Assembly (NCBI GenBank): GCA_964474445.1
Contig: CAYYSJ010000007.1
Coordinates: 3,112-67,111, forward strand
DNA length: 64,000 nt
Direction: 5' to 3'
Source: an uncultured Gammaproteobacteria bacterium
Lineage (GTDB): Bacteria; Patescibacteriota; Microgenomatia; Levybacterales; UBA12049
Position 1 is the first letter of the stretch. Each line of letters opens with the position of its first letter. This document shows positions 10,529 to 62,607 of the stretch, in pieces. The position numbers and the translations under genes were made by a program. The notes under the pieces are model-generated. The model was not told the DNA's origin and ran no database searches. It saw only the letters and a program-made list of their open reading frames with translations.

Positions 10529-10534
10529 ATAATC

Positions 10535-16913: not shown

Positions 16914-18599
16914 ATGGGTACTGAAATTCGATCACAATTGAAGCAAGTGAGGCAAGATTTACCTCACAATTTTCAGGTGCGTACATTTCCTAATAAGGTA
17001 GGTCTGGTAAATAGATTACGACTTTGGAAAGAGATGTCGCGTGAGATGAGGCATTTTAGAGGTGAGGTGTGGCATAAAGATGAGATATGGGCAAGTAACA
17101 GTGAGAATTATAGTTATGCTTTTTTTGGAAGAGATAGTCTTGAAGCCTCGGAAGATACCCTTCCCTTTGATACCACATTTGCAAGAGACACTATTCGCAA
17201 TTTAAGTAGACTGCAAGGCCGCTCATATAATGCTGTGACAGAAGAAGAACCAGGGAAAATTGTTCATGAATTCAGACAAAAAAGTAATACCCACCCACAA
17301 GCAACGCAGGAAATCTTTCAAAAACTCCATGATATGTGGGGGGAAAAAGGAACAGATTTTGTTAGTTATTACGGTAGTGCAGATGCAACGCCACTCTACA
17401 TACGACTTGTTGCAGATTATTGCCAACAGGTAGGCAATACCAACATTCTTGATGAAATAATAATCCAGAAAGATGGAAAAGAAAAATCAATTAGAGAAGT
17501 CTTATGGAACAGTTTGGAATGGTTACAACGACGCGTTGAAGATGGTCCTCTAGGACCTGATGGATTATCTACTGAGCCTCATCCTGACAAAAGAATAAAA
17601 CTTCTTGAATTTAAGCGAATGAATGAAAAAGGAATCGAAAATCCCATTTGGAAAGATTCTCTTACTTCCGTCATGCACCCAGACGGAACATTAGCAAATC
17701 ATGATTATCCTATTGCAACAATTGAGCTGCAAGGTTTAGCTTATGATGCATTAACAAAGGGAACAGAACTTTTTAAAGAAGACTATACAAAGGCTCAAGC
17801 GAGAGCTGGTATGCTCCTCACTGCCTCTGAGGTTCAACTGAATACGTTGACTCATTTTTGGATGCCTGAGCGGAATTATTTTGCCGTTGGGTTAGATAGA
17901 GACGATAATGGTAATTATAGACAAATACGAACTATAGAATCAAACCCAGCAGAACTTCTGAATACGACATTTTTTGATAAGCTCCCTGAGCATATGAGAC
18001 AACCGTATATCACAGGTATTGTTAATACAATTTATAGTAAGAACTTTTTAACAGACGTTGGAGTTAGATGCAGATCATTAGAATACACAGGTATGATAGA
18101 TTTCTGGGATTATCATGGAGTTCACGCTGTGTGGCCAAAAGAAACATATGATATTGCAAAAGGACTTTTGAAGCAAGGATTTCCTCAATTAGCAGAACAA
18201 CTTTTTTTTCGTATGAGAAACGGTATGAAAGTTGAAAACTCATTTGCCGAATTATTTTACGTTGACGATGATGGTTCTGTAGCTTATAAACCAAAAAAAT
18301 TACTCGACACAAATGCACAACACGGCAAGGTTATTGTCACAACATCTGTTCCTGAAGACAAACAAACATGGTCTTGGAGTGCATACATTGCAAGTGTCCT
18401 TAATAGAAGGATAAAACCAAACATACTATCTTGGCAATATAAACTTGAAGAGCAACTTCTTCTTGCAAATCCGTTAGTAGAACCTCTTTCATTTAGAAAA
18501 GCCAGAGCTCTTATGCGAAGAGCATACGTCATTGATCAGCAAACTGCATTTGATAGAGAAAGAGTGTTCAAAGGAAAACTGAGACGAACTGCAGATTAA
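16914..18599 (+). CDS. Glycogen debranching enzyme-like glycoside hydrolase, paralog of 1258..3072
   Basis: 561 aa sharing collinear motif blocks with the first GDE-like ORF ('KLLEFKRMNEKG', 'YPIATIELQG..DAL', 'HFWMPERNYFAVGLDRDDNG', 'NTTFFD', 'FLTDVGVRCR', 'DFWDYHG'). Confidence 0.6.
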   Translation: MGTEIRSQLKQVRQDLPHNFQVRTFPNKVGLVNRLRLWKEMSREMRHFRGEVWHKDEIWASNSENYSYAFFGRDSLEASEDTLPFDTTFARDTIRNLSRLQGRSYNAVTEEEPGKIVHEFRQKSNTHPQATQEIFQKLHDMWGEKGTDFVSYYGSADATPLYIRLVADYCQQVGNTNILDEIIIQKDGKEKSIREVLWNSLEWLQRRVEDGPLGPDGLSTEPHPDKRIKLLEFKRMNEKGIENPIWKDSLTSVMHPDGTLANHDYPIATIELQGLAYDALTKGTELFKEDYTKAQARAGMLLTASEVQLNTLTHFWMPERNYFAVGLDRDDNGNYRQIRTIESNPAELLNTTFFDKLPEHMRQPYITGIVNTIYSKNFLTDVGVRCRSLEYTGMIDFWDYHGVHAVWPKETYDIAKGLLKQGFPQLAEQLFFRMRNGMKVENSFAELFYVDDDGSVAYKPKKLLDTNAQHGKVIVTTSVPEDKQTWSWSAYIASVLNRRIKPNILSWQYKLEEQLLLANPLVEPLSFRKARALMRRAYVIDQQTAFDRERVFKGKLRRTAD

Positions 18600-19051
18600 A
18601 ACGTGTTATTTCTCTTCATATTTTGCAAAAATTCTTTCTGTTCTTCCACAATATTTTGAGGAAAATCGGAAAAAAACTTTATAGTGCTTGCTTGCTCATC
18701 AAGAATAAATTTTTTAGACGTAGAGTTGCACAAGAAAGCAAGACCAACAGGATGATCAAATCCTCCTCCTGCTTCTTGATTAAGATATTCAATATATCCT
18801 AAAAATTTTCTTACAGTAACATCAACTCCTAACTCTTCTTTTGCAATTCTTTTTACTGCACCTTCAAGTGATTCCTTAAAATAAACAGTCCCTCCTGGTA
18901 AATGCCATATGTTGGCAAAAGGAGGTATGCCACGCAAGGTAAAAAGTATACCCTCCTTATCCTGTATCACTACTTCTACTGTTAAACGTGGCACTTGAGA
19001 ATAAATCTTTTTGTATTCTTCAAATGTGAACTGTTTATTCATTTCGATCAA
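18596..19051 (-). CDS. NUDIX hydrolase
   Basis: 151 aa with Nudix box 'GGTVYFKESLEGAVKRIAKEELGV' (GX5EX7REUXEEXGU). Confidence 0.75.
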   Translation of the reverse strand: MIEMNKQFTFEEYKKIYSQVPRLTVEVVIQDKEGILFTLRGIPPFANIWHLPGGTVYFKESLEGAVKRIAKEELGVDVTVRKFLGYIEYLNQEAGGGFDHPVGLAFLCNSTSKKFILDEQASTIKFFSDFPQNIVEEQKEFLQNMKRNNTF

Positions 19052-19156: not shown

Positions 19157-20203
19157 ATGAGACAGATAAAACCAGTAAACAAAACAGTACGAAAAATTGC
19201 AATTTTTCGGGCTCTTCAATTAGGAGATATGCTTTGCAGTATTCCGTCATTTCGTGCACTCAGAGCATATTATCCGGATACCAAAATTACGCTCATAGGG
19301 CTTCCTTGGGCGAGGGATTTTGCACAAAGATTTCCTCACTATATTAACGAATTTTTTGCATTTCCAGGATATCCCTCTTTGCCGGAAAGAAAATTTAATC
19401 TTGAAGCATTTCCACGATTTTTACAAAAAGTGCAAGACGAACAATTTGATCTCGTTTTTCAAATGCATGGATTAGGTACAATAACGAATCCACTCATCAC
19501 ACTCTTTCATGCAAAACAGTCTGCCGGATTTTATATAAAAAATACCTATTGCCCTAACAAGAAAATGTTTTTTATCTATCCAGAAGAACTCCATGAAACA
19601 CATAAATATTTATTCTTACTTAAACAACTTGGGATTCCCTCTCAAGGGAACTATTTAGAATTTCCTATATCAAAAACCGAAGAGTATCAAACAACAATAC
19701 TCATGCAAACATATGGCATAAAAAAGAAGAAATATATTATGTTGCATCCAGGAGGAAGAGATAAGAAAAGACAAAATGGTGTTACACTCTTCTCTACACT
19801 TGCAAATGTTCTTACTCATCAAGGGTATACTGTTGTTCTGACAGGAACTGCAAACGAACAGACTCTTTGTAAACAAATACTCAAAGAAACCACTTCAAAA
19901 AATATCATTGACCTTTCTGGAAAAACACAGTTAGGCCAACTTGCGTATATCATACAACATGCTTCACTTCTTGTTTCTAACGATACCGGCGCATCTCATC
20001 TTGCTGACGCACTTCATACACCAAGTGTTATTCTTTTTACACCTTACTCAAATCAAAATCGTTGGGCACCCTTAAATACGCAGCTCCATATATCACTCGC
20101 CCCACCCTACTCTCTTGACCAGATACTGAATACTGCAACTGCACTACTTTATCATGATATGGCAAGTCGCGTATCTCCAAGAAAGGAGCACTATGCAAAC
20201 TAA
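19157..20203 (+). CDS. GT9 family glycosyltransferase (ADP-heptose-dependent heptosyltransferase-like), copy 1
   Basis: 348 aa. N-terminal 'KIAIFRALQLGDMLCSIPSFRALRAYYPDTKITLIG' and C-terminal 'SNDTGASHLADAL' are the conserved GT9 (WaaC/WaaF/WaaQ-like) blocks. Confidence 0.75.
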   Translation: MRQIKPVNKTVRKIAIFRALQLGDMLCSIPSFRALRAYYPDTKITLIGLPWARDFAQRFPHYINEFFAFPGYPSLPERKFNLEAFPRFLQKVQDEQFDLVFQMHGLGTITNPLITLFHAKQSAGFYIKNTYCPNKKMFFIYPEELHETHKYLFLLKQLGIPSQGNYLEFPISKTEEYQTTILMQTYGIKKKKYIMLHPGGRDKKRQNGVTLFSTLANVLTHQGYTVVLTGTANEQTLCKQILKETTSKNIIDLSGKTQLGQLAYIIQHASLLVSNDTGASHLADALHTPSVILFTPYSNQNRWAPLNTQLHISLAPPYSLDQILNTATALLYHDMASRVSPRKEHYAN

Positions 20204-21203
20204 CAGACCTCGGATACTTACCTGGCATATTCATGGAAGTTATTTATATTACTTAACACAAACTGCATGCGAATTTTATATTCCGGTAAAAGAGGAACGA
20301 CCAGATCGCTATATTGGCTTGCCTGAAGGTGACTTCCCTTGGGGAGAGAATGCTCACGAAATTGCAGCTGAAAAAATAAAAGAGCTTGATTTTGATTGTA
20401 TCCTTTTTCAGTCTCAAGAAAATTATACCCAGGATCAGTATGAGGTTCTTTCAGCACAACAGCTTAGCCTGCCCAAAGTATATCTTGAGCATGATCCTCC
20501 TCGTGAAACACCGACAGATACCAAACACATTGTTGATGATCCAGATATCTTGCTAGTCCATGTCACGCATTTTAATAATGTATTTTGGGACAATAATCAA
20601 ACTCCGACAACTGTTATTGAACATGGTGTTTCCATTCCAAAAGATATCCAGTATGTGGGAAACTTGCGTAAAGGCATTGTTGTTGTTAATAACCTTCAGA
20701 CAAGAGGAAGAAGACTTGGACTCGATATTTTTGAATCAGTAAAAAAGCACATTCCAGTAGATATTATTGGTATAAACTCACAATATGTTGGAGGACTTGG
20801 GGAAATTTCTCATCAAAGACTTCCCTCATTTCTTGCTCACTATAGATTTTTCTTCCACCCCATCAGATATACCAGTTTAGGACTCGCCGCTTGTGAAGCA
20901 ATGATGATAGGACTTCCCATTGTTGGATTATCAACAACAGAGATGCCAGATGTGATTGAAAATGGTAAAGAAGGGTTTTTACACAACGATATCGCTACTT
21001 TAATACAACACATGCAAGAGTTACTCAATGATAAGGCATATGCGAAAAGATTGAGTCAAAATGCAAAGAATAAAGCATTGAAAAAGTTTCACATAAAGCG
21101 TTTTGTAGAAGATTGGGAAGATCTTTTTCAATCTGAAATACAAAAGCATAAGAGGAAAGCTCTACAACATACAATGAGAAAAAGTATAGGAGGAATTTTA
21201 TGA
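20193..21203 (+). CDS. GT4 family (GT-B, retaining) glycosyltransferase
   Basis: C-terminal 'EAMMIGLPIVGLSTTEMPDVIENGKEGFL' matches the GT4 E-x7-E region. I prefer the start at ATG 20193 (AGGAG RBS) over the track start 20154; it overlaps the upstream gene by 11 nt. Confidence 0.7.
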   Translation: MQTNRPRILTWHIHGSYLYYLTQTACEFYIPVKEERPDRYIGLPEGDFPWGENAHEIAAEKIKELDFDCILFQSQENYTQDQYEVLSAQQLSLPKVYLEHDPPRETPTDTKHIVDDPDILLVHVTHFNNVFWDNNQTPTTVIEHGVSIPKDIQYVGNLRKGIVVVNNLQTRGRRLGLDIFESVKKHIPVDIIGINSQYVGGLGEISHQRLPSFLAHYRFFFHPIRYTSLGLAACEAMMIGLPIVGLSTTEMPDVIENGKEGFLHNDIATLIQHMQELLNDKAYAKRLSQNAKNKALKKFHIKRFVEDWEDLFQSEIQKHKRKALQHTMRKSIGGIL

Positions 21204-23104
21204 AAAAAAGATTAGCTTTTATATCAGAGCATGCATCTCCCCTAGCCGCATTAGGAGGAGTTGATAGCGGAGGACAAAATTTATATGTAGACCAAGTAGC
21301 CAAGCATCTTTCAATGTTAGGGTATGAAATTGATATTTTTACGCGTTGGGATAATCACCAACTTCCTAAAGTGATTAATTATCAAAATGGCATACGTGTT
21401 ATTCATATAAAAGCAGGTCCTGTCCAATACATTAAGAAAGAACTGCTCCTTTCCTATATGCATGAGTTTACTATAGAGATGTTACGGTTTATTGAGGAAG
21501 AGGAACTTACCTATAAGTTAATCCATGCTAACTTTTTTATGTCAGCACTTGTTGCTTCAGAAATAAAAAAGGAACTTCGAATTCCCTTCGTTGTCACATT
21601 CCATGCATTAGGAAAAATACGACGTATGTATCAAGGTGACAAAGATACATTTCCCGATACGCGATTTACTATCGAAAAAGAAGTATGCAACAGTGCGGAT
21701 CAAATTATCGCAGAATGTCCCCAAGATAAAGAAGATCTCATGTATCACTATCATGCAAGCCAAGATAAAATAAGCATTATACCTTGTGGATTTGATCCAA
21801 ATGAGGTATACCCTCTTGATAAACATCTTGCAAAAATCACCATAGGACTTGATCCTCACAAGAAATATATTTTGCAACTAGGTCGTATTGTCCCCCGAAA
21901 AGGTATTGATACTGTTATTGCTTCATTTGCAAAACTTCGTAAAAAAACACAAGGACAAGTAAAACTACTCATTGTTGGAGGAGAATCTGATGAGCCAAAT
22001 TCTTCTATTACTCCCGAAATTGGAAGACTACAAAACATTGCGAAAGCATTACATGTTGCAACAGATGTCATCTTTTTAGGGAGACGATCACGTGAACAGT
22101 TAAAATATGTATATAATGCTGCTGATATCTTTATCAGTGTCCCGTGGTATGAGCCATTTGGTATCACTCCTCTTGAAGCAATGGCATGCGGAACACCAGT
22201 GATTGGTTCTCGTGTTGGAGGAATAAAATTTAGTGTTATCGATGGAAAAACCGGTTTTTTAGTAGAACCACATGATACAGAAATGCTTGCAACAAAAATG
22301 CAGGAATTGTTAACAAATGAAAAGCTTGGAAGATCTTTCTCAGAGAATTCGCTAAAAAGAGTTAATGAATTCTTTACATGGAAAACTGTTGCATCAATGC
22401 TTTCAACAATCTACGAAAAAATTCTTTACTCCCAAAAACTTTCTGTTCAACAATATAATGAACAATCAGATATTGTAGACAGAAACTTTGAAGTACTCAT
22501 AACAACTGTTCAACGGTCTCAACAAAAACTGCGACTGTCCATTGTTCATACAACCCGAATTTTGTATACGTGTTTACAAAATGATGGAAAGATACTGATT
22601 TGTGGAAACGGAGGAAGTGCGACAGATGCTCAACATTTTGCAGGAGAACTCGTTGGCAGATTTAAAATAGAAGATAGACTTGCCCTCCCTGTCCTTTCCT
22701 TAACAGCAGATTCATCAATATTAACAGCAATAGGCAATGACTATTCATTTGAGAATATTTTTGCAAGGCAAGTTGAAGCATATGGGAAACCGGGAGATGT
22801 CCTTATTGCAATTAGTACAAGTGGTAATTCAAAAAATATTATCAATGCTCTCAAGACAGCGAGAGAAAAGGACCTTATCTGTATCGGATTTACAGGCAGA
22901 AGCGGTGGAAAGATGATAGATGATTGTGATATTTCACTTGTTGTCCCTGCAGATCAAACTTCCCTCATCCAAGAAATTCATACGCACCTGATTCATTCGA
23001 TATGTGAACTTATTGAAAAACAACTGTTTTACTCTCATGAACAATCACTATCTAAATCTAAAAAAAATATAAACGATACAATGCCAGTGGCAAAAAATGG
23101 ATAA
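21200..23104 (+). CDS. Fusion protein: GT4 glycosyltransferase + SIS-domain sedoheptulose-7-phosphate isomerase (GmhA-like)
   Basis: 634 aa. Residues ~1-400 are a GT4 fold ('GGQNLYV', 'EPFGITPLEAMACGTPVIGS', 'E..NG..GFLVEP'). Residues ~440-620 are a SIS domain with GmhA hallmark 'ILICGNGGSATDAQHFAGELVGRF' and 'ISTSGNSKNI'. Confidence 0.7.
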   Translation: MKKRLAFISEHASPLAALGGVDSGGQNLYVDQVAKHLSMLGYEIDIFTRWDNHQLPKVINYQNGIRVIHIKAGPVQYIKKELLLSYMHEFTIEMLRFIEEEELTYKLIHANFFMSALVASEIKKELRIPFVVTFHALGKIRRMYQGDKDTFPDTRFTIEKEVCNSADQIIAECPQDKEDLMYHYHASQDKISIIPCGFDPNEVYPLDKHLAKITIGLDPHKKYILQLGRIVPRKGIDTVIASFAKLRKKTQGQVKLLIVGGESDEPNSSITPEIGRLQNIAKALHVATDVIFLGRRSREQLKYVYNAADIFISVPWYEPFGITPLEAMACGTPVIGSRVGGIKFSVIDGKTGFLVEPHDTEMLATKMQELLTNEKLGRSFSENSLKRVNEFFTWKTVASMLSTIYEKILYSQKLSVQQYNEQSDIVDRNFEVLITTVQRSQQKLRLSIVHTTRILYTCLQNDGKILICGNGGSATDAQHFAGELVGRFKIEDRLALPVLSLTADSSILTAIGNDYSFENIFARQVEAYGKPGDVLIAISTSGNSKNIINALKTAREKDLICIGFTGRSGGKMIDDCDISLVVPADQTSLIQEIHTHLIHSICELIEKQLFYSHEQSLSKSKKNINDTMPVAKNG

Positions 23105-23112
23105 ACAAACGA

Positions 23113-23835
23113 ATGGAAACGTTGAAAAATAAAATTATTCTTATTACAGGTGCAGGACAAGGACTTGGTGAAGCAACAAGTCGAGTACTAGCAAAAGAGG
23201 GTGCAATTATCCTGGCTGCTGATATTCAATATGAATTAGTTGTTTCACTCATTGAGGATCTTATTGCACAAGGGTATCAAGGTGAAGCGTTTCATCTTGA
23301 CGTAACAAACGATGACTCTATACAAAAAGTGCTTGACACTATTATGAATAGTTATGGACATATCGATGTTTTAATTAATAATGCGGGGATCGATGTAACC
23401 AAGCCTATTGAAGAAATAGCGATTGAAGAATTTGACCACATTCTTTCGGTCAATTTACGAGCACCATTTATATTATCAAAGTCTGTTCTTCCTTTTATGA
23501 AACACTCTGGAGGGAGTATTGTCAATATTATTTCTACAGCAGCAAAACGTGCATGGGTAAATGCTTCTGCTTATCATGCAAGTAAATGGGGATTATTAGG
23601 ACTCTCCTATGCATTACATGTTGAAGGAAGAAAAAAACATATTAGGGTTTCAGCTGTTGTTGCAGGAGGGATGAAGACACCTTTTATTTTAAACCGTTTT
23701 CCTGATACACCGCTTGAGGTGTTACAGAACCCTGAAAGAGTTGCTGAAATCATTAAGTGTGTGCTTTTGGTACCTGAAGAATCAGTCGTCCCTGAAGTAA
23801 TGGTGCTTCCTATGCAAGAAACATCATGGCCATGA
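23113..23835 (+). CDS. Classical short-chain dehydrogenase/reductase (SDR)
   Basis: 240 aa. 'ITGAGQGLGEA' cofactor motif, 'NNAG' motif, catalytic 'YHASKWG' (YxxxK). Confidence 0.8.
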   Translation: METLKNKIILITGAGQGLGEATSRVLAKEGAIILAADIQYELVVSLIEDLIAQGYQGEAFHLDVTNDDSIQKVLDTIMNSYGHIDVLINNAGIDVTKPIEEIAIEEFDHILSVNLRAPFILSKSVLPFMKHSGGSIVNIISTAAKRAWVNASAYHASKWGLLGLSYALHVEGRKKHIRVSAVVAGGMKTPFILNRFPDTPLEVLQNPERVAEIIKCVLLVPEESVVPEVMVLPMQETSWP

Positions 23836-24398
23836 TTATGAAAAAAGCAATTTTTATTGATAAGGATGGGACACTGATTACCAATGTTCCTTATAATGTA
23901 GACGTTAATAAAATACAACTCGTGAATGATGTTGGACCAAGTCTCCTGCGTCTTTCCCAACATGGATATCTGTTTGTTGTCATAACAAATCAGTCCGGCA
24001 TTGCAAAAGGATTATTTACCGAAGAACAGCTATCTCCTGTTTTTCAAACAATACAAGCACTTTTAGATGCATTTCATGTAACTCTTGCTGGGTTTTATTA
24101 TTGTCCACATCATCCTCAGGGGACTATCAGTTCGTATACAAAGACTTGTTTTTGTCGCAAACCTTTACCTGGTCTTCTTTTCCAAGCAGCATCTGATTTA
24201 CACATAGACATTTCTTCCTCATGGATGATTGGGGATATGCTAACAGACGTTGAAACTGGAAATAAGGCAGGGTGTAAAACGATATTGCTCCACAATAGTA
24301 ATGACATAGAAGAAGATATATCTCCTCATAATATTCCCTATTACATAGCACCAACCTTTCGCGACATCGTTGACGCAATACTTCTATCAGAGAAGTGA
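23826..24398 (+). CDS. gmhB: D-glycero-D-manno-heptose 1,7-bisphosphate phosphatase (HAD family)
   Basis: 190 aa. HAD motif I 'IFIDKDGTLI', 'VITNQSGIAKG', Zn-binding-like 'CPHHP...CFCRKP' loop, motif 'MIGDMLTDVETG'. Confidence 0.75.
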   Translation: MAMIMKKAIFIDKDGTLITNVPYNVDVNKIQLVNDVGPSLLRLSQHGYLFVVITNQSGIAKGLFTEEQLSPVFQTIQALLDAFHVTLAGFYYCPHHPQGTISSYTKTCFCRKPLPGLLFQAASDLHIDISSSWMIGDMLTDVETGNKAGCKTILLHNSNDIEEDISPHNIPYYIAPTFRDIVDAILLSEK

Positions 24399-24428
24399 CT
24401 ACAATCGATACACCCAATTATATACTGT

Positions 24429-25913
24429 ATGATTCGTGATTTTTCGACAATATTAAAAAAAATTGAAAACCTATCCTTTATTGTTATAGGAGATGCCATG
24501 TTAGATGTGTATATACGAGGACTTTCGCAAAGACTCTCTCGAGAAGCGCCAGTCCCCATTATCGCAGTTGAGGATAGGCAAGAGCGTGCAGGAGGAGCAG
24601 CAAATACAGCCATTAATGTGGCACAATTCGGCGCTCATTGCTATTTTATGTCTACAATTGGAGAAGATCCCGAAGGAGACAGTCTTATACAGATACTAGA
24701 TAGCAATGGTGTTCATACAGAAACTCTAATAAGGGAAAACAAAAGAACATTAAGCAAACAAAGAGTATGCGCTCAAGATCAACAACTCGTTCGATTTGAT
24801 TATGGAAATGATAAAAAAATTAACAAAAGCACAGAACACAAGTTGATTACAGCTCTTTCACAACTTCACCAGCAATGTGATGGTATTATTATTTCTGACT
24901 ATGAATATGGAACGATAACAGAAGCTATTAGAGAGGAACTCTACTCTCTCCAAAAAATATTAAAGAAAATTATTGTCGTCGATGCAAAACACCCTCAGAA
25001 ATATTCACTTCTCTCTCCAACACTCGTAAAACCAAATTTTGCTGAGACCATGGATCTTTTACAAATAAAGGACTATCCAACAACAAACAGAATAGCTTTT
25101 ATAGATTCCTATAAAGACCAAATCCTTGAAAAAACAGGAGCATGTATCGTAGCAGTAACACTTGATAAAGAAGGGAGCATTGTCTTTCAGCAAAAAAGTA
25201 ATTCATATCAAATACCAACCACTCCAATGGATAATGCAAAAGCTGCTGGCGCTGGTGATACATATACCGCAATGTTTGCACTTTCACTTGCGGCACAGGG
25301 AGAAATTTTTACTGCAGCGCATGTAGCAGCAGTAGCAGCAGGAATTGTTATCCAGAAAGATCTTACTGCAATTTGTACAAAATCAGATTTGTACTTTTAC
25401 TACTATTCACAACAAAAACAACTTCAGTATTCAGACATGCCACAATTTATACAGTCTATAAGAACACAGAAAAAACGGATTGTGTTCACAAATGGTTGTT
25501 TCGATATTATTCACAGCGGACATATTACCTATTTACAAGAAGCAAAAAATCTTGGCGATATATTAATTGTAGGACTCAACACTGATGAGAGTGTCAAAAG
25601 GCTCAAAGGAAAAGAACGACCAATTAATACATTACTAGATCGCATGCATGTCTTATCTGGGCTAGCAAGTGTTGATTATGTTATTCCATTTGCAGAAGAT
25701 ACTCCTATTGCTCTTATCAAAAAAATTTGTCCAGATATTTATGTAAAAGGGGGAGACTATACAAGAGAAACATTACCTGAAGTACCAATTGTAGAACGTT
25801 TGGGAGGACGACTCGAGATTATTCCTTATGTAAAAGACCATTCCACAACAAACATTATTCGACAGATACAAGAAAAAACATCTGGAAAATCTATGTTACA
25901 TTCTTATGAATAA
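24429..25913 (+). CDS. hldE: Bifunctional D-beta-D-heptose 7-phosphate kinase / D-beta-D-heptose 1-phosphate adenylyltransferase
   Basis: 494 aa. N-terminal pfkB-type sugar kinase ('VIGDAMLDVYI', 'GGAANTA', 'GAGDT'). C-terminal cytidylyltransferase-like domain ('FTNGCFDIIHSGHITYL', 'LIVGLNTDESV'). Confidence 0.85.
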   Translation: MIRDFSTILKKIENLSFIVIGDAMLDVYIRGLSQRLSREAPVPIIAVEDRQERAGGAANTAINVAQFGAHCYFMSTIGEDPEGDSLIQILDSNGVHTETLIRENKRTLSKQRVCAQDQQLVRFDYGNDKKINKSTEHKLITALSQLHQQCDGIIISDYEYGTITEAIREELYSLQKILKKIIVVDAKHPQKYSLLSPTLVKPNFAETMDLLQIKDYPTTNRIAFIDSYKDQILEKTGACIVAVTLDKEGSIVFQQKSNSYQIPTTPMDNAKAAGAGDTYTAMFALSLAAQGEIFTAAHVAAVAAGIVIQKDLTAICTKSDLYFYYYSQQKQLQYSDMPQFIQSIRTQKKRIVFTNGCFDIIHSGHITYLQEAKNLGDILIVGLNTDESVKRLKGKERPINTLLDRMHVLSGLASVDYVIPFAEDTPIALIKKICPDIYVKGGDYTRETLPEVPIVERLGGRLEIIPYVKDHSTTNIIRQIQEKTSGKSMLHSYE

Positions 25914-27000
25914 AGATTGGCGACTGGTTCGCAATATACTCTGTATTCGTCCTGACAATATGGGAGATGTCATTATGACTCAACCCGCACTTCGAGCACT
26001 TAAAGAATCACAACAAGAGGTACATATTACTCTGCTCACATCAGATATTGGAGCAAACATTACTCCATATATTCCAGAAATTGATAAAACAATTGCATAC
26101 AATGTCCCATGGGTAAAAGCTTCTGGTACCGACGTACCCCAATTATCTTCTCTTATCCAAACTCTTAGCAAAGAGCAATTTGATGCAGCTGTTATTTTTA
26201 CGAATTTCAGTCAAAGTGCACATCCTTCTGCTGCTATTTCTTTACTTGCTCATATCCCTAAGAGATTGGCATATTCACGCGAACGTGTGTATGATCTCCT
26301 GACAGATTGGGTAGCTGATACAGAACCCTTTACTCCTCTTATACATGGTGTAGAAAGAAACCTAAAATTAGTAGCGACGATAGGTGCAACAACAATAAAT
26401 ACCAATCTTTCCTTAAAAATTCTGTCAGAAGATTTTCAAAATCTTTTAACACTTCTTTTTCAGACGAGCCTTGACTTAACAAAACCGTGGGTCATTATTC
26501 ACCCGGGAGTAGAAGATAAAAAAAGACAATTCCCTGTTGGACGTCTTGCAGAAGTAGCGCGCCTACTCATCCATAAGGGATATCAAATACTTTTGACAGG
26601 CACTCAAAAAGAAGAACAACAAATACATCACATGCAACAGCTTCTCCAAAAAAGAGCAATTAACCTTGGTGGAAAACTATCATTAGGGGAATTCCTCGGT
26701 CTTTTAAGAATTTCTCCTTTAGTAATAGCGAATAATACTGGAGTCGTTCATATGGCTGCAGCACTCAACACACCAGTTATCGTTTTATATGCAAGAACAA
26801 ATCCAGAACATACTCCATGGAATGTTAAAAGTTATGTTTTTTATTTTGACACATCGTCGAGCCTAAAAAGTAAGGTTCCTCTACTCTCATACATCGCACC
26901 GCATGATCAAATCCCTTTGCCAAAAGCAATGGAAATTCTTGAAGCTGCTTTAGCGATATTAGCATCGTATACTCATTCACCGAACTTCCAATTTTTATGA
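25906..27000 (+). CDS. GT9 family glycosyltransferase (heptosyltransferase-like), copy 2
   Basis: 364 aa. 'ILCIRPDNMGDVIMTQPALRALK' N-terminal GT9 block and 'ANNTGVVHMAAAL' C-terminal block. The stop TGA overlaps the next ATG (ATGA). Confidence 0.75.
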   Translation: MNKDWRLVRNILCIRPDNMGDVIMTQPALRALKESQQEVHITLLTSDIGANITPYIPEIDKTIAYNVPWVKASGTDVPQLSSLIQTLSKEQFDAAVIFTNFSQSAHPSAAISLLAHIPKRLAYSRERVYDLLTDWVADTEPFTPLIHGVERNLKLVATIGATTINTNLSLKILSEDFQNLLTLLFQTSLDLTKPWVIIHPGVEDKKRQFPVGRLAEVARLLIHKGYQILLTGTQKEEQQIHHMQQLLQKRAINLGGKLSLGEFLGLLRISPLVIANNTGVVHMAAALNTPVIVLYARTNPEHTPWNVKSYVFYFDTSSSLKSKVPLLSYIAPHDQIPLPKAMEILEAALAILASYTHSPNFQFL

Positions 27001-27800
27001 AAAACGTAACTGTCCTTATACCTACACTCAATAGAACAACATCACTTGCAGTAATGCTGATGAGTATTGTTTTTCAAACCTACACTAACTTTGATGTAGT
27101 GATTTCAGATCAAAGTGACACGAACAGTCCTTTTGAAGACCCTACTATCCAAACAGTTATTCGTCTTTTCAGGCAAAAAAATCATACAGTACATACTCTT
27201 GTTAACCTCCCGAAATATGGAATAGCACAACAACGGCAATTTCTTCTGGATCATGCTCATACGTCATATAGTCTTTTTCTTGATGATGATCTTATTCTCG
27301 AGCCATATGTCTTAGAAGGCATGGTGAAAGTTATTGAAAAGGAAAACTGCGGTTTTGTAGGACGTGCTCCTATTGGATTAAGTTTCTATAATGATGTTCG
27401 TTGTCAAGAAGAACATATTCGCTTTTGGAAAGGGAAAGTGAAACCTGAAACAGTATCACCAAATACCTCAAAGTGGAACCGGCATCGTATTCATAATGCA
27501 GCAAACATTCTGCACATCGAAGAGAAACTGGGCATTACCTATGAGAAGCAAAAGACATATAAGATTGCATGGATTGGTGCTTGTGTATTATATGATACAG
27601 AAAAATTAAAAAAAACGGGAGGATTTTCTTTTTGGAAAAAACTACCTTCAGCTCATTGCGGAGAAGATGTCTTGGCTCAACTTAGGGTGATGAAAAAGTA
27701 CGGCGGATGTGGCATACTTCCTTCAGGAGTCTATCATCAAGAAGTACCAACAACACTTCCTTCCAGGGATATTAATGCTCCTGAATTTATCAGCGTATGA
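26997..27800 (+). CDS. GT2 family glycosyltransferase
   Basis: 267 aa. 'VLIPTLNR' start of a GT-A fold, 'FLDDD' DxD motif. Confidence 0.7.
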   Translation: MKNVTVLIPTLNRTTSLAVMLMSIVFQTYTNFDVVISDQSDTNSPFEDPTIQTVIRLFRQKNHTVHTLVNLPKYGIAQQRQFLLDHAHTSYSLFLDDDLILEPYVLEGMVKVIEKENCGFVGRAPIGLSFYNDVRCQEEHIRFWKGKVKPETVSPNTSKWNRHRIHNAANILHIEEKLGITYEKQKTYKIAWIGACVLYDTEKLKKTGGFSFWKKLPSAHCGEDVLAQLRVMKKYGGCGILPSGVYHQEVPTTLPSRDINAPEFISV

Positions 27801-28519
27801 AATTTGTACCCTATACAATTATTGATAAACAGCAAGAATTGGAAGATACCTATATTATTCGTTTAGCGCCTTTGTATAAAAATATTTTTGATTTTTTAGC
27901 AGGGCAATATTGTTATCTTCTTAATCCTACCTACAAAGATCCAAAAGATCCTCATCCTTTCTCCATTGCATCATCTCCATTCCAACGAGACTATTTAGAA
28001 TTTTGCGTTAAAACATATGGAGAGTGGACTACGTCATTTGTCAAAAAATCAGTAGGAAAAGAAGTCCTTGTCTCAGACCCTTTAGGAGAATTTACTTGGT
28101 CACGTGATATCTCATATGCTGTATTTCTTTTAGGAGGCATCGGTATCGCGCCTATTATGTCTATACTCAGAACTCTCGCAACATCTCACAGTTCCATTCC
28201 ACTAACGATACTTTATGGAAACCGAAACCCAGGAACAATTGCATATAAGAAAGAACTGGAGGAGCTTACGAAGCACCTTGCCTTAAACATCATCCACATT
28301 TTTTCAGATAGTGATATCCATTCTTTGGGGAATGAATATCAAGGCTTTATTACAAAAGAGATACTTCTCAAAGAAGTTAACTTTACAAACAAATCTACTT
28401 TTTTTATTGTCGGTCCACCGATCTTTGTTGAGAAAATGAATACCATTCTTTCTGACATGCACATTACAAAACAGCAACAAAGACAAGAGCTGCTTGCCGT
28501 TCTTTCTGTACCTGTATGA
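27797..28519 (+). CDS. FNR-like FAD/NAD(P)-binding oxidoreductase (ferredoxin reductase-type, no Fe-S domain)
   Basis: 240 aa. FAD motif 'HPFSIASSP' (RxYS-type), NAD(P) motif 'LLGGIGIAPIMS' (GGxGxxP), C-terminal 'FIVGPP'. Confidence 0.6.
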   Translation: MKFVPYTIIDKQQELEDTYIIRLAPLYKNIFDFLAGQYCYLLNPTYKDPKDPHPFSIASSPFQRDYLEFCVKTYGEWTTSFVKKSVGKEVLVSDPLGEFTWSRDISYAVFLLGGIGIAPIMSILRTLATSHSSIPLTILYGNRNPGTIAYKKELEELTKHLALNIIHIFSDSDIHSLGNEYQGFITKEILLKEVNFTNKSTFFIVGPPIFVEKMNTILSDMHITKQQQRQELLAVLSVPV

Positions 28520-28537
28520 GTAAAAAGCCAATATTGC

Positions 28538-29587
28538 ATGCCAAAACATACTCTTCATGATGTTAAAAAAATCGCTTTGTTGCGAGCAAATGCATTAGGT
28601 GACTTTTTTTTCGCTTACCCTGCACTGTGCGCATTAAGAAATGCCTATACAGATGCAGAAATTGTCTATTTAGGCAAACCTTGGCATAAAGAATTTCTCG
28701 AGTCACGAATATCTCCTATTAATCGTGTTATTGTTGTTCCTCCTAGCATAGGTGTGCGAGAAGAAAAAGACTATCTATGTAGCAAAGAAGAACTAGATAT
28801 CTTTTTTGCTGAGATGAAAAAAGAACATTTTGATCTTGCCATACAAATGCATGGAGGGGGAAAGTACTCAAATCCATTTATTTTGAAACTTGGAGCAAAA
28901 ACCACCGTAGGACTGAAAACACCTGATGCATCACCCCTTGATATATCGATCCCCTATGATTTGTATCAAAATGAATTTCTAAAATATTTAGAAGTTGTTG
29001 GATGCATTGGGGCAGTAACAAAAAATCTTCATCCTCTGCTTTCTGTTACCAAAACAGATCTCTCCCTCGCAAAAGACTATGTCCCTTCGAAACCTTTTAT
29101 TGTTATGCATCCTGGTGCATCCGATCCTCGAAGGAGATGGCCGGAAAAATACTTTATTGAAATAGGAGATATCCTTTCAAGAAAGGGGTTCAGCATCATC
29201 ATAACTGGCACAGAAGCTGAAAAAGAGATTGCTGCACATATTATTTCTCGTATGCAAAAAAACGCAATTAACTTATGTGGAGCTAGTAACCTCAGTACTC
29301 TTACTGGAATTTTGGCTCTTTCACAGCTTGTCATTTCCAATGATAGCGGCCCCCTGCACCTTGCTGATGCTGTGGGAGCAAGAACCGTTGGAATATATTG
29401 GGTTGGAAATGCGATGAACAGTTCTCCTCTTATTCGTGCTGGTAAAAAAGTCTTGTTTTCCTGGACGCTGTTGTGTCCTTTCTGTCATACAAACTGTATT
29501 GAGAAAAATTGTGGACATGAAGTTTCTTTTGTAGAAGATATCAAACCAAAACAAGTCATCGAAGCTGCATACCAATTGTTACAGTAA
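28538..29587 (+). CDS. GT9 family glycosyltransferase (heptosyltransferase-like), copy 3, with C-terminal Cys4 cluster
   Basis: 349 aa. 'KIALLRANALGDFFFAYPAL', 'ISNDSGPLHLADAVG', and a C-terminal 'LLCPFCHTNCIEKNCGHE' four-Cys motif absent from copies 1 and 2. Confidence 0.7.
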   Translation: MPKHTLHDVKKIALLRANALGDFFFAYPALCALRNAYTDAEIVYLGKPWHKEFLESRISPINRVIVVPPSIGVREEKDYLCSKEELDIFFAEMKKEHFDLAIQMHGGGKYSNPFILKLGAKTTVGLKTPDASPLDISIPYDLYQNEFLKYLEVVGCIGAVTKNLHPLLSVTKTDLSLAKDYVPSKPFIVMHPGASDPRRRWPEKYFIEIGDILSRKGFSIIITGTEAEKEIAAHIISRMQKNAINLCGASNLSTLTGILALSQLVISNDSGPLHLADAVGARTVGIYWVGNAMNSSPLIRAGKKVLFSWTLLCPFCHTNCIEKNCGHEVSFVEDIKPKQVIEAAYQLLQ

Positions 29588-29591
29588 GTAC

Positions 29592-31541
29592 TTACTCATA
29601 TCCTCTTTTTTGCAGCTGAAAAAATTGAGCATATAATCCGTACTTGTCTAAAAGTTCTTGGTGAGAACCTTGTTCGATAAGTTCTCCTTTCTCTAACACA
29701 TAAATTTTATGCGCCATTCTTACGTTTGAAAATCTATGTGAAATAAAAAGAAGGTTTTTTGTTTTGTAAAGCTCTTTCAGCTTATCAAAGATTTTCACTT
29801 CTCCATCCGGATCTATTGCGCTCGTTGGCTCATCGACGATCAGTATTGGAGCATCTCGAAAAATTGCTCTTGCAATTGCAACCTTTTGCCACTGTCCACC
29901 AGATAATTCAACACCACTATCAAACCATCTTCCAAGAACTTGTTGATATCCTTTTGGCAAAAATCGTAGAAGATCTTCACTATGAGAATGTTTGAGAGCG
30001 TTTTCTACTTCTTCTCGTTTTTGCTCTCTACTTTCCATTCCCTTTAATTTTTCAAGATTTCCAAACCAAATATTTTCTTCAAGACTCAAATAATACTTTG
30101 CAAAGTCCTGAAATAACACGCCAATATGCTGGTACCAATGTTCTATATCAATATGTTTTAAATCAACCCCATCAACAAGAATTCTTCCATCTGTTGGATC
30201 ATAGAATCGAAAAAGCAATTTAATCAGTGTACTTTTCCCTGCTCCATTATGACCAACAATTGCAGTATCTTGTCCTTTTTCGATAACCAAATTGATATTC
30301 TTTAATGAGTAAGCTTCTGCTCCTGGGTACTTAAAACTAACATTGTCAAAAATAATTTGACGAGGTCCAATCGTATCAAAATATTTTGGGTTATCTGGAA
30401 TAAATGTTGTATTTTTTATATCAAGTAAATTGAAGTAATCTTCTAAATAAAGGCTGTTTTCGCTGACGGCTCCAATATTAATAAGAATACTGGAAATTTG
30501 TCCAGAAAATGTAAAAAGGATATTAAGGAAAAAGGTAAAATCACCGATAGAATACGCTTTTGTATCAACACCGGAGATAAAATGAGTCAAAGCAAAATAA
30601 ATAGCAATAGGAATAAGAATAAAACTTACGGTAGAAAGAAGAGAATAAAGAGCAATTGGTTTTTGATAATCTGCAACCATCTTTTTTTGAAGCTCCTCAG
30701 TTTTTTGAATAAAGTGATCCCCTAATCCATAGATTTTCATTTCTGAAAGTGTTTGAAAATTTGTGAAGAGAGATTTCAAATACCAAACATAGTTTGCTCC
30801 TGACGCATTTTTTGTTTGTGCAGACCAAGCGATATTTCCATATTTCGCGCGAAGATAATAGACAGGTGTACAAATAACTGCAAGCATAACAAAATATATC
30901 GGACTAAATTTTAATGCAATAAGTAAAGAAAATACTAATGCAGCAATGTTATACACAATTGCATTTAATGTATGAAGAATTTCTGGAAGTCTCACTGTGT
31001 AATTATTCTCAACCTTTGCAATAAGATTACGTACTTCTCCTTTTTCAAGATTAGTAAAATCCATATCCCCCAGTTTTTTCATAAAAAGGCGTGTAAGTGC
31101 ATCTTGCAGCTTTGCCTTAACAAAATAATCAAAATAATACTGATTGAAGGTAAAGTTAACAAATCGGGATAAATATTCAAAGAAAAGATACGTCCCTATG
31201 ATAATAAATAATGAATTTCCAGGTATAACACCAGCATTATGCGCAACCTGATCGATCATCAACTTATAGAGAAAATACACACCAAAAAGAAGTGATGCAC
31301 CCAAAGCGGCTGTACTAAAATATGAAATAAAAAGAATCTTGTCTTCTTTAAAAGAAATGAGGAGTAAACGCCAGATATTTGAGATAAATTTTCTTGACGA
31401 GTGTTTCTTCTTTGAGAAATGTTCTTTTTTTTTCCTCAGCGTATTATAAAGGATGGGCAGGACAGACATACGTTTTGTATTTTGGATGGCCATTGTAACA
31501 ACGAATTTTGGTAATTGCAAGCAAGCACCAAACCATTTCAA
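29592..31541 (-). CDS. ABC exporter, fused permease-ATPase (MsbA/type I exporter-like)
   Basis: 649 aa. N-terminal 6-TM domain. C-terminal NBD with Walker A 'GHNGAGKST', signature 'LSGGQWQKVAIARA', Walker B 'ILIVDEPTS'. The true start may be internal (M17 or M26). Confidence 0.85.
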   Translation of the reverse strand: MKWFGACLQLPKFVVTMAIQNTKRMSVLPILYNTLRKKKEHFSKKKHSSRKFISNIWRLLLISFKEDKILFISYFSTAALGASLLFGVYFLYKLMIDQVAHNAGVIPGNSLFIIIGTYLFFEYLSRFVNFTFNQYYFDYFVKAKLQDALTRLFMKKLGDMDFTNLEKGEVRNLIAKVENNYTVRLPEILHTLNAIVYNIAALVFSLLIALKFSPIYFVMLAVICTPVYYLRAKYGNIAWSAQTKNASGANYVWYLKSLFTNFQTLSEMKIYGLGDHFIQKTEELQKKMVADYQKPIALYSLLSTVSFILIPIAIYFALTHFISGVDTKAYSIGDFTFFLNILFTFSGQISSILINIGAVSENSLYLEDYFNLLDIKNTTFIPDNPKYFDTIGPRQIIFDNVSFKYPGAEAYSLKNINLVIEKGQDTAIVGHNGAGKSTLIKLLFRFYDPTDGRILVDGVDLKHIDIEHWYQHIGVLFQDFAKYYLSLEENIWFGNLEKLKGMESREQKREEVENALKHSHSEDLLRFLPKGYQQVLGRWFDSGVELSGGQWQKVAIARAIFRDAPILIVDEPTSAIDPDGEVKIFDKLKELYKTKNLLFISHRFSNVRMAHKIYVLEKGELIEQGSHQELLDKYGLYAQFFQLQKRGYE

Positions 31542-51930: not shown

Positions 51931-52094
51931 CTCCTATGTAAAAGGTAATATTGGAAAGTTCGCCTGAAAGAAGAGGATTATCTAAGAGGAACCATACAAA
52001 AATAATCTACAATCTCTTATAAACTCTTTTTGTTTAGCGACGTCTTAACACCTCTTCTCGTTGAGCTTCGACTATTGCTGAAAGACGTATGCGT

Positions 52095-52268
52095 ACTACT
52101 CTATTCGTTCTAACCTAATCTAAATCAATGAAATTAAGCTATTGCAAGCTACTTTGGATTAATCCTTACTCCGGAAAAATCTGTCCTGACCTTGACCGTC
52201 TCTCGACGTGGGGGGTCAGCAGCTTGTATTCTTTCAGCAGTCTCACCTAACGAGGTGCAACTAACTAT
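52095..52268 (-). ncRNA. Candidate M-box (ykoK) Mg2+-sensing riboswitch in the leader of the Nramp-like operon
   Basis: Minus-strand leader reads ...CGTTAGGTGAGACTGCTGAAAGAATACAAGCTGCTGACCCCCCACGTCGAGAGACGGTCAAGGTCAGGACAG... This aligns with the Bacillus mgtE M-box core 'CGUUAGGUGAGGCUCCUGUAUGGAGAUACGCUGCUGCCCAAAAAUGUCCAAAGACG' as I recall it, with conserved GUUAGGUGAG, GCUGCUG.CCC, AGACG and CAGGACA boxes. About 330 nt of leader lie upstream of the Nramp ATG. Confidence 0.55.
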
Positions 52269-62537: not shown

Positions 62538-62607
62538 GATGCGGTCGCCGAGTTGTCAGGCATCTGTCCGCAAGACAGAGGACACAGGTTCAGCGCCTGT
62601 CCGCATC
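62538..62607 (+). ncRNA. GC-rich tRNA-like/structured leader element (candidate cis-regulatory RNA)
   Basis: 70-nt GC-rich island in an AT-rich genome, directly after a TATAAT box (62524-62529). Outer 7-bp stem GATGCGG/CCGCATC. Internal hairpins CTGTC-CGCAA-GACAG and ACAGG-TTCAGCG-CCTGT (T-arm-like). Direct repeat CTGTCCGCA occurs twice. Confidence 0.4.

Follow-up and report, generated by a model that had tools for sequence, protein, structure and literature searches.

Heptose is usually treated as a hallmark of lipopolysaccharide (LPS), whose inner-core system comprises the precursor enzymes GmhA, HldE, GmhB and HldD and the transferases WaaC, WaaF, WaaQ and WaaG. It is also drawn from sedoheptulose-7-phosphate without any LPS, in the GDP-D-glycero-alpha-D-manno-heptose pathway of the Aneurinibacillus thermoaerophilus S-layer and in the pathways to septacidin and hygromycin B. 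Streptomyces coelicolor offers a further setting, the operon cwg ("cell wall glycan", SCO6179-6190): it is a sigma-E target induced by vancomycin (Tran et al. 2019, PMC6767563); three of its 12 genes, cwgG-cwgH-cwgI (SCO6185-6187), specify a transferase, a phosphoheptose isomerase and a bifunctional synthase/transferase (PMC5839063); and cwgA was reported in 2026 to be induced by salt (PMC13011467). The subject of this account is a cassette of ten codirectional genes (19157-29587, + strand) in a window of 64,000 nucleotides, the whole stretch of DNA analysed (contig CAYYSJ010000007.1, assembly GCA_964474445.1). By its sequence the cassette appears to be a distant member of the cwg kind, which is known but chemically unsolved, and at that coarse level (a cwg-type cassette for a heptose glycan other than LPS) we hold the assignment with considerable confidence. 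A tentative answer to what it makes, to which we give a little less than an even chance, is that this is the copy, in a bacterium of the candidate phyla radiation (CPR), of a cwg-type cassette for an oligosaccharide rich in heptose that is unrelated to LPS and is built in the cytoplasm upon a sugar-phosphate primer.

The S. coelicolor operon is alike in being a monoderm operon with a phosphoheptose isomerase (cwgH), an HldE-type enzyme (cwgI) and several transferases. A cwg-like cluster of Streptomyces rimosus permits a gene-by-gene comparison; its order is GT9, pyruvyl transferase, UXS-like dehydratase, carbamoyltransferase, glycosyltransferase (GT), HAD-IIIA, GT9, GT, GT4, SIS, rfaE2, GT, GT. 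Its trio GT4-isomerase-HldE resembles cwgG-cwgH-cwgI, with orthology taken from annotation. In common with the window it has two GT9s, a short GT4 (GT4s), a longer GT4, GmhA, GmhB and HldE, and it keeps the window's adjacency GT9-GT4s-GT4-GmhA-HldE. The differences are considerable: identity to the window proteins is only 27-40% (BLASTP: GT4 38%, 281 bits; GmhA 40%; GT4s 33%, 174 bits; HldE 30%, 179 bits; GmhB 34%; GT9 27-28%), GmhA is unfused, the carbamoyltransferase, the UXS-like dehydratase, the pyruvyl transferase and further GTs are added, and the classical SDR, the GT2-FNR pair and the third GT9 are missing. Regulation by sigma-E is known for Streptomyces only, whose cwg operon, on this annotation-based orthology, is the one relative of the cassette to have been studied. 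Searches of the literature on ADP-heptose and heptosyltransferases in Patescibacteria, Chloroflexi, monoderms, CPR bacteria and Gram-positive Actinobacteria yielded no description of the cassette, and a search joining heptosyltransferase to carbamoyltransferase yielded LPS-core papers only.

The cassette and its enzymes

The ten open reading frames (ORFs) of the window's ORF list lie just where the initial annotation of this DNA had placed them, and its inventory stands: Pfam and NCBIfam profile models, their scores set against the NCBI cut-offs, back each assignment. In order, all on the + strand, they encode GT9a, a heptosyltransferase-like GT9 (19157-20203; PF01075, E 9e-27); GT4s, a short GT-B protein of which GT1/GT4 models match the C-terminal half only (20193-21203, or from an alternative start at 20154); a GT4-GmhA fusion of 634 amino acids (21200-23104; MshA model 294 bits, GmhA/SIS model PRK13936 235 bits); a classical SDR (23113-23835; adh_short 174 bits); a GmhB-type HAD-IIIA phosphatase (23826-24398; PRK08942, 141.8 bits); HldE, a bifunctional kinase/nucleotidyl(adenylyl)transferase (24429-25913; PRK11316, 385 bits); the WaaF-like GT9b (25906-27000; TIGR02195, 142.4 bits, cut-off 134.6); a soluble GT2 (26997-27800; PF00535, E 2e-12); an FNR-like flavin reductase without an Fe-S domain (27797-28519; NAD_binding_1 and FAD_binding_6/8); and GT9c, the third GT9 (28538-29587; PF01075, E 8e-29). 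These family matches are strong and rule out chance. Six of the nine junctions overlap (by 50 nt, or by 11 with the Met14 start of GT4s, then by 4, 10, 8, 4 and 4), the fusion gene being coupled to GT4s through an ATGA; at the other three the genes are separated by 8, 30 and 18 nt. A scan for promoters and terminators found sites no more frequently in the window than in shuffled sequence, so the operon boundaries are drawn from gene spacing alone. The GC content of the operon, 0.35-0.38, is that of its surroundings; a recent foreign origin was considered and dropped, composition giving no sign of recent transfer. Clear transmembrane (TM) segments are lacking in all ten proteins; marginal hydrophobic stretches in two of them are probably buried strands.

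By the Lon protease of the window the host is one of the Patescibacteria, Levybacteria-like, and very probably LPS-less: the identity of this protein is 91% to one assigned to a "Patescibacteria group bacterium" and 77-78% to proteins of Candidatus Levybacteria. LPS is, to our knowledge, absent from the Patescibacteria/CPR radiation. The envelope genes of the window specify a sortase F, an LCP transferase and a LytR_C protein (two LCP/LytR-type proteins, that is), and no outer-membrane marker was found in its 64 kb. No window ORF long enough to encode one has an lpx, kds or waaA domain, or an HldD-like epimerase/extended-SDR domain; the lipid A-Kdo genes of an LPS core locus (lpxA-D, kdsA/B, waaA) are thus wanting within these 64 kb. 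The initial annotation had spoken of an apparently LPS-less organism, of a missing HldD and of a product other than LPS: the first is well supported by the Lon similarity, the sortase and LCP genes and the missing outer-membrane marker, the second holds within the window, and the third follows from the probable lack of LPS in the host. Its tying of the cassette to LPS-less, sortase- and LCP-bearing organisms has not survived, since the same cassette in the same order is also found in LPS-bearing diderms (Bacteroidota, Burkholderiales, Planctomycetota, Verrucomicrobiota).

Residues 1 to ~415 of the fusion protein are a retaining GT4 of the kind of sucrose-phosphate synthase (SPS) and MshA, and its residues ~425-634 a sedoheptulose-7-phosphate isomerase. 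In the latter (SIS_2, 97 bits; TIGR00441, 205.8 bits against a cut-off of 209.45) the GmhA motif CGNGGS...H...E and later Q/E/H residues are invariant among 21 aligned sequences; these we take to be the counterparts of the E. coli catalytic residues, so that the SIS domain would have the catalytic equipment of GmhA. A search of PDB sequences with the GT4 part returns Tll1590, the SPS of Thermosynechococcus (6kih, 245 bits over query residues 3-409), and Corynebacterium MshA (3c48, 228 bits over residues 4-413), followed by Halothermothrix SPS, GlgM and BshA; WaaG matches through its C-domain alone, with 54 bits. The likeness to the SPS/MshA subfamily extends over both domains, including the acceptor-binding N-domain. 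The acceptors of these top relatives are small and anionic: fructose-6-phosphate, inositol-1-phosphate, glucose-1-phosphate, malate. In the Thermosynechococcus SPS, Arg105 and Arg178 hold the phosphate of sucrose-6-phosphate, and His158 and Glu331 are essential (PMC7264703; the chain index is the paper's number plus 3). Lys80 of the fusion aligns with SPS Arg105 and MshA Lys78, and Arg155 with SPS Arg178 and MshA Arg154; His135 and Glu318 align with SPS His158 and Glu331. In 21 sequences drawn from many phyla each of these four residues is invariant or at least 90% conserved, Lys80 being invariant and Arg155 nearly so. Full-length relatives of the fusion, 50-64% identical, occur in Saccharimonadales, Patescibacteria, Chloroflexota, Balneolaceae, Chryseosolibacter, Nitrosospira/Nitrosovibrio and cyanobacteria. 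The GT4 part retains these two phosphate-binding residues of SPS and MshA, and we therefore propose a phosphorylated sugar as its acceptor, which would be the most economical reading of the sequence. The GmhA partner points, circumstantially, to heptose phosphate or heptulose phosphate.

The short GT4s that precedes the fusion is the most conserved gene of the cassette, with more than 7,500 homologues at E <= 1e-20, of which the best 120 listed are 55-67% identical, with 57-67% across phyla. Its active site is non-canonical. Only ~95 of its C-terminal residues align to the GT4 model, and where the first Glu of the EX7E motif should stand there is Thr in 46 of 50 orthologues and Glu in none. 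Its N-terminal half, recognised by no sequence model, carries the invariant His-rich motifs W-H-x-H-G-S-Y, E-H-D-P-P and V-H-V-T-H (in about 50 orthologues, from L002-L081 in the numbering of related loci used below), and this domain may hold a metal site or act as a non-catalytic partner. AlphaFold (AF2) models GT4s as a complete GT-B fold (pLDDT 90.3) with structural neighbours in the PDB that include BshA, the Thermosynechococcus SPS, MshA, the methylmannose-polysaccharide mannosyltransferase, the glucosylsucrose synthase Tll1591, tetrahydrobiopterin glucosyltransferases, TreT and GlgM: by this model, enzymes of soluble acceptors or cytoplasmic glycans. SdgB and TarM are also among the neighbours. 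The best PDB sequence match of GT4s is Tll1591; tll1591 adjoins tll1590, and its product elongates sucrose to stress-induced glucosylsucrose oligosaccharides (PMC9909042). A likeness of Trp11/Tyr17 of GT4s to Trp10/Tyr18 of glucosylsucrose synthase is tentative, since the profile alignment of GT4s with PDB sequences is confined to the C-terminal part.

The comparison with the sucrose system (tll1590 and tll1591; PMC7264703, PMC9909042), and with MshA and its phosphatase in mycothiol synthesis, can be carried some way. The GT4 subfamily and its conserved acceptor-phosphate ligands are the same; a HAD phosphatase adjoins, and so does a second, shorter GT4, which in Thermosynechococcus elongates the dephosphorylated product. 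The cassette differs in that its phosphatase is GmhB-type and not of the sucrose-phosphate phosphatase (SPP) type, and in the addition of GT9s and of a nucleotide diphosphate (NDP)-heptose supply.

All three GT9 proteins match PF01075 (E 1e-27 to 1e-31), and in each the N-terminal GD motif (WaaC Asp13) is intact. GT9a (NDTG) and GT9c (NDSG) also keep the Asp equivalent to WaaC Asp261, as checked on the 2h1f alignment, and so have both elements of the GT9 heptosyltransferase motif, GD and the Asp of xDTG. GT9b has NNTG, and Asn stands in the place of this Asp in all 46 of its aligned orthologues; in the GT9a clade the position is Asp in 30 orthologues and Cys in 18. The Asn and Cys may signify a different donor or a different mode of binding. 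WaaF and WaaQ, the LPS enzymes of heptosyltransferase types II and III, transfer heptose onto heptose. GT9b and GT9c have heptosyltransferase II/WaaF as their best model (GT9b also matches the WaaF structure 1psw, E 3e-21), and GT9a has heptosyltransferase III/WaaQ (TIGR02201, 93.7 bits, well below the cut-off of 170 and with modest differences between model scores). The WaaC type (heptosyltransferase I/RfaC) is the best model for none of the three, the RfaC-specific scores being 43, 49 and 28 bits against a cut-off of 437. By analogy, WaaF/WaaQ-like enzymes would suit the extension of a primer that already contains heptose. GT9a has orthologues of 38-47% identity in most related loci; GT9c has one of 51% at the upstream end of the cassette in L083, and others in L018, L063 and L081. 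The cyanobacterial and Chloroflexota cassettes have, between GT9a and GT4s, a stand-alone ORF of ~137-170 amino acids that corresponds to the N-terminal half of a GT9 (L089 9574-9987; also L002, L004, L005, L016, L024, L031, L034 and L047, at ~7.7-8.9 kb in locus coordinates); the window has none.

Distribution and heptose supply

Relatives were collected by a pattern scan with one genome per species, in which at least 593 of 600 candidate stretches encode a relative of the GT4; the ten window proteins were compared with the 80 loci kept, and phosphoglycosyl transferases (PGTs) and flippases were surveyed in about 88. The core order GT9a, GT4s, GT4 (with or without fused GmhA), SDR, GmhB, HldE, GT9b, GT2 recurs, at about 40-60% identity, in Chloroflexota, Cyanobacteria, Bacteroidota, Actinomycetota, Myxococcota, Planctomycetota (an anammox genome included), Roizmanbacteria, Burkholderiales, Verrucomicrobiota, Acidobacteriota and Gemmatimonadota, and in at least 12 phyla overall. 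On plasmids, tblastn finds the GT4 on megaplasmids of Burkholderia, Paraburkholderia, Caballeronia, Cupriavidus and Ralstonia and on a large linear plasmid of Streptomyces rimosus. The cassette appears to be horizontally spread and very widespread, and the window one of its ordinary members. Its closest relatives keep the GT2-FNR pair, and L083 has all ten genes, with the third GT9 shifted to the upstream end. A minimal form, in L085 (8059-12633; Patescibacteria, GCA_021786105.1), consists of GT9a, GT4s, GT4-GmhA and SDR, with no GmhB, HldE or GT9b nearby and with a small HAD-like gene and two NTP_transferase genes within 8-10 kb; it could help to define the essential core. A PucR-type regulator accompanies the cyanobacterial cassettes and is absent from the window.

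Clustering of the ORFs of the 80 loci brings out two further companions, both absent from the window: a carbamoyltransferase of the NodU/CmcH type, in 39 loci, and, in 32, a GT2 that has membrane helices at its C-terminus. They also stand as an adjacent pair (L003 15064-18947 and 31-38 other loci; L088 4359-7204; Streptomyces). The Pseudomonas LPS core carries 7-O-carbamoyl-heptose, and many versions of the cassette product are probably carbamoylated. No family of PGT, Wzx/Wzy, Wzm/Wzt, flippase, polymerase or ligase recurs with the cassette in the ~88 loci. One Nostocales locus has a WecG-type transferase and a Bac_transf PGT directly upstream; tblastn found these two enzymes in none of the others.

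The supply of NDP-heptose is the variable part of the cassette. HldE of the window has PfkB and CTP_transf_like domains and the HxGH motif of its family; it scores below the full-length cut-off (385 against 521, PRK11316), with its domain II, the rfaE adenylyltransferase, above its own cut-off (209 against 181.5) and its domain I, the kinase, below (237 against 345). The STT-motif, on which an Arg rule for promiscuity towards CDP- and UDP-heptose is based, is divergent here (YVKDHSTT), and the rule is not confidently applicable. The phosphatase is best matched by the beta-type model PRK08942 (141.8 bits, cut-off 178), ahead of TIGR00213 (133) and the alpha-type model (92); it belongs to the heptose 1,7-bisphosphate 7-phosphatase family, with that bisphosphate as its putative substrate. 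HldE-type enzymes, with the adenylyltransferase domain above cut-off, imply the beta-anomer, and in this the cassette differs from the GDP-heptose and antibiotic systems, which have HddA/HddC (GDP, alpha-anomer) or tailoring enzymes and scaffold genes; the cassette has neither HddA/HddC nor antibiotic scaffold genes.

Fifty-two loci are complete, having flanks of 7 kb or more in both directions; GmhB is present in 45 of them, HldE in 25 and GmhA in 25. HldE goes with the cassette in Chloroflexota (7 of 7), Cyanobacteria (8 of 9), the CPR locus and Myxococcota, mostly together with GmhA, and is mostly lacking from the cassettes of Bacteroidota and Pseudomonadota. This pattern is consistent with a cassette that depends on NDP-heptose and carries the pathway with it into hosts that have none. 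The supply genes being carried mainly in phyla without LPS heptose, their distribution suggests, indirectly, that heptose is the donor of the GT9s. GmhB occurs without HldE in 21 loci: the phosphatase keeps closer to the GT4 gene than a heptose pathway would demand.

The remaining enzymes are less telling. The best models for the SDR (3-hydroxybutyrate dehydrogenase and generic SDR) all score below cut-off, and it is a classical SDR of the FabG/3-hydroxybutyrate-dehydrogenase type, not an extended NDP-sugar SDR; in most monoderm and cyanobacterial loci the gene after the GT4 encodes an orthologue of it, 50-58% identical. Orthologues of GT2 (51-60%) are found in the cyanobacterial, Chloroflexota and closest-relative loci. 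The FNR-like protein has generic PDB matches only. Its gene follows GT2 in L082-L084 (45-51% identity) and in none of L002-L081, and is a lineage-specific accessory. A 6-deoxyheptose made by the SDR and the FNR-like enzyme, as the initial annotation had suggested, was rejected as unsupported: the SDR is classical, and the reductase lacks an Fe-S domain and is confined to the closest relatives.

A soluble or a lipid-linked product

How might these enzymes work together? We infer donor nucleotide, acceptor, order of steps, export and function along the following lines. The GmhA domain would isomerise sedoheptulose-7-phosphate, and GmhA, HldE and GmhB would between them yield NDP-D,D-heptose, no epimerase being present. 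The SPS/MshA-like GT4 would begin the chain by glycosylating a phosphorylated sugar, in the simplest case the heptose phosphate made by its own GmhA domain. The GmhB-type phosphatase would then strip off the phosphate, as sucrose-phosphate phosphatase does for sucrose-6-phosphate, and GT4s, the three GT9s and GT2 would extend the soluble primer in the cytoplasm. The product would be a small oligosaccharide resembling the LPS inner core without its Kdo or lipid A; it would probably protect against envelope or osmotic stress, or else be a secreted glycan, and its export in this organism might proceed through the neighbouring MsbA/NdvA-type ABC exporter. A soluble primer is preferred because GmhB stays beside the GT4 gene in the loci that have no HldE, because the ten proteins have no clear TM segment and no priming or flippase machinery recurs with them, and because the neighbours of GT4s are again GT4s of soluble acceptors, Tll1591 among them; a stress role is suggested because cwgA responds to salt. 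As a route (a free cytoplasmic heptose oligosaccharide for which GT4-GmhA glycosylates a heptose or heptulose phosphate, the GmhB-type enzyme releases the disaccharide and the GT9s accept a soluble, lipid-free substrate) this would be new, and we regard it as still more doubtful than the general proposal with which we began, roughly one chance in three.

Several points weigh against the sugar-phosphate primer. Every characterised GT9 heptosyltransferase, as far as we know, uses a lipid-anchored acceptor. The fusion GT4 has Phe and Ala at the positions of MshA Tyr110 and Thr134, which are presumably two of four phosphate ligands of MshA, and Lys80 and Arg155 could equally bind the phosphate of a lipid-linked acceptor. 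GT4s, lacking the catalytic Glu, may be inactive. Six transferases are many for a compatible solute. The carbamoyltransferase and membrane GT2 of the related loci count on the same side, as does the Nostocales locus with its WecG-type transferase and PGT. The cwg operon, by whose analogy we reason, sits in a cell-envelope stress regulon, and Hong, Paget and Buttner, who reportedly named it in 2002, are said to have predicted a wall glycan.

These points lead to the principal rival, a classical wall or surface glycan such as the initial annotation and the cwg authors proposed, which we consider unlikely, though a good deal less so than the others. On this view the enzymes would assemble a heptose oligosaccharide at the inner membrane face, with polyprenyl phosphate or a glycolipid as its lipid carrier; the MsbA/PglK-like ABC exporter would flip it, and an LCP enzyme or some other ligase whose gene lies elsewhere would join it to peptidoglycan or to a surface protein. 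This would accord with the lipid-anchored acceptors of all GT9 enzymes studied, with the place of the S. coelicolor operon in the sigma-E envelope-stress regulon and its induction by vancomycin, with the MsbA/PglK/HepA-like exporter abutting the cassette in the window and in Roizmanbacteria, with the LCP, LytR_C and sortase F genes and the 1314-residue Thr/Ser-rich secreted protein of the window, and with the membrane-anchored GT2 of 32 related loci and the PGT and WecG-type transferase of one. Yet no priming PGT, Wzx/Wzy, Wzm/Wzt or ligase is conserved with the cassette over ~88 loci and more than 12 phyla, and the ABC exporter adjoins it in two loci only. The N-domain of the fusion GT4, moreover, is SPS/MshA-like and unlike those of GT4s with lipid acceptors, and we know of no heptose reported in the well-studied wall polymers of Streptomyces. 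The surface-protein, S-layer or wall-polymer target of the initial annotation is pure inference: no priming transferase, flippase, polymerase or ligase conserved with the cassette stands behind it. Cytoplasmic O-glycosylation of secreted Ser/Thr-rich surface proteins before their export, in the way that TibC/AAH heptosylate autotransporters, or that a GT4 and its GT-B-like partner (GtfA/GtfB, SdgA/B) modify serine-rich adhesins, is an improbable variant. All ten enzymes appear soluble, the pairing of a catalytic GT4 with a short GT-B protein that lacks the catalytic Glu recalls GtfA/GtfB, SdgB and TarM are among the structural neighbours of GT4s, and the 1314-residue protein, with 18.6% Thr and 10% Ser, is encoded 8 kb away; but no candidate target protein is conserved beside the cassette in other phyla, the fusion GT4 resembles SPS and MshA, not GtfA, and keeps its phosphate-binding residues, and the best GT9 score on the TibC/AAH autotransporter heptosyltransferase model (TIGR04414) is 18.6 bits against a cut-off of 200.

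Two further rivals part company with the transferases or with the host. CPR bacteria are often episymbionts, and an activated heptose or small heptoside might serve as a signal or as a host-directed molecule, the transferases playing a minor part. NDP-heptose biosynthetic enzymes do occur across kingdoms with roles beyond LPS (PMC11461863, a commentary on Tang et al. 2024), but five or six transferases are conserved while GmhA and HldE are each absent from 27 of the 52 complete loci; the transferases being kept where the supply genes are dispensable, the conserved core is therefore the transferases and not the heptose supply, and we rate this explanation as very improbable. Least probable of all, to the point where it can practically be set aside, is an ordinary LPS inner-core locus of a diderm organism. 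It would explain why GT9b scores above the NCBI heptosyltransferase II cut-off, and why HldE, GmhA and GmhB form an LPS-type pathway; more broadly, the cassette shares with the LPS inner-core system its precursor families, WaaF/WaaQ-resembling GT9s and, as in WaaG, a GT4. But an LPS core locus is made very unlikely by a patescibacterial host, and sortase and LCP genes stand in the window in place of any lpx, kds, waaA or outer-membrane gene. The WaaC model scores below the top model for all three GT9s, and for GT9b lowest of all. The cassette lacks the lipid A/Kdo acceptor, a WaaC-type enzyme and HldD, its GT4 is SPS/MshA-like and not WaaG-like, Asn replaces the counterpart of WaaC Asp261 throughout the GT9b clade, and the same cassette occurs in Actinomycetota and Chloroflexota.

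Neighbouring genes and the meaning of the cassette

Convergent with the operon, and only just beyond its end, lies the gene for the MsbA/HepA/NdvA-type ABC exporter (29592-31541, - strand), which has five or six TM segments and reaches the cut-off of none of its models (TIGR02204 266 bits, HepA_fam 244 bits). Of the other loci only L011, from Roizmanbacteria, has a homologue next to its cassette, 60% identical: the protein is a possible exporter of the product, and the association is weak. Two upstream genes were considered as members of the cassette and rejected: the NUDIX gene (18596-19051), which is not conserved with it, and the gene for a 561-residue hypothetical protein (16914-18599, +), a distant relative of archaeal-type glycogen-debranching enzymes that is found near the cassette in one Jettenia locus only. 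The latter is also one of three upstream genes for (alpha/alpha)6-type glycoside hydrolases: itself (PDB 7vma, E 5e-22, with no Pfam match), a GH37 trehalase (15186-16706, -) and a weakly MGH1-like (mannosylglycerate hydrolase-like) protein (1258-3072, +). Together they suggest a turnover of small soluble glycosides in this CPR host.

The 1314-residue protein (37543-41487, -) matches no Pfam or NCBIfam model, begins with a signal-like segment and has no LPXTG; besides its Thr and Ser it contains 14% Gly, 11% Ala and 10% Asn, and the local GC content rises to 0.44. Its gene adjoins LytR_C, two-component and LCP genes, and the protein is a candidate for a surface or S-layer component and perhaps for a target of glycosylation. 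What is probably a separate synthase-dependent exopolysaccharide module (8294-12106, +) comprises a 744-residue double GT2, one half of it PgaC/cellulose-synthase-like, and a 523-residue protein with ~8 TM segments and no family match, and is followed by the class F sortase and an acyltransferase_3.

Metal transport is well represented. The window holds three Nramp paralogues (6846-8102, 48591-49892 and 50248-51930), the last (- strand) with an M-box (Mg2+) riboswitch (52045-52261, -; 117 bits) in its leader; M-box-controlled NRAMP-related Mg transporters occur in Clostridia, and the arrangement resembles these. The first paralogue is preceded by the gene for a PRC-barrel/MgtE_N/CBS protein (the pair at 5696-8102, +, 11 kb upstream of the cassette), and on a Burkholderia multivorans megaplasmid (L087 1-3738) the homologous GT4 has CBS, PRC-barrel and Nramp genes immediately upstream, together with BON, DUF892 and DUF2795 genes of stress type. 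Either chance or a shared stress island may lie behind this. Finally, tRNA-Cys(GCA) (62538-62609, +) is overlapped by a mechanically called ORF of 351 codons (62539-63594) with a weak DIT1_PvcA match; its true start must lie downstream of the tRNA, or its 5' end must be spurious.

What does the cassette signify? With it, organisms that lack LPS, and many that have it, possess two to four GT9 transferases and the full NDP-heptose pathway. Conservation of this degree (thousands of homologues, 50-65% identical across phyla) means that it must make a single defined product. Should the Streptomyces match be true orthology, identification of that product would come more than 20 years after the cwg operon was named. 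Finding it would explain one target of the Streptomyces envelope-stress response, supply a function for genes whose automatic annotation in monoderms is "LPS heptosyltransferase II", reveal whether non-lipid acceptors can serve GT9 enzymes, and indicate whether CPR and environmental bacteria are sources of immune agonists of the NDP-heptose type. One can think of the cassette family as an attractive orphan pathway, with a sugar-phosphate-primer hypothesis that is directly testable. The free-oligosaccharide route, if true, would add a class of glycan not recognised before, stress-protective or secreted, and common to CPR bacteria, Streptomyces (as its cwg product), cyanobacteria, Chloroflexota, Bacteroidota and Burkholderia.

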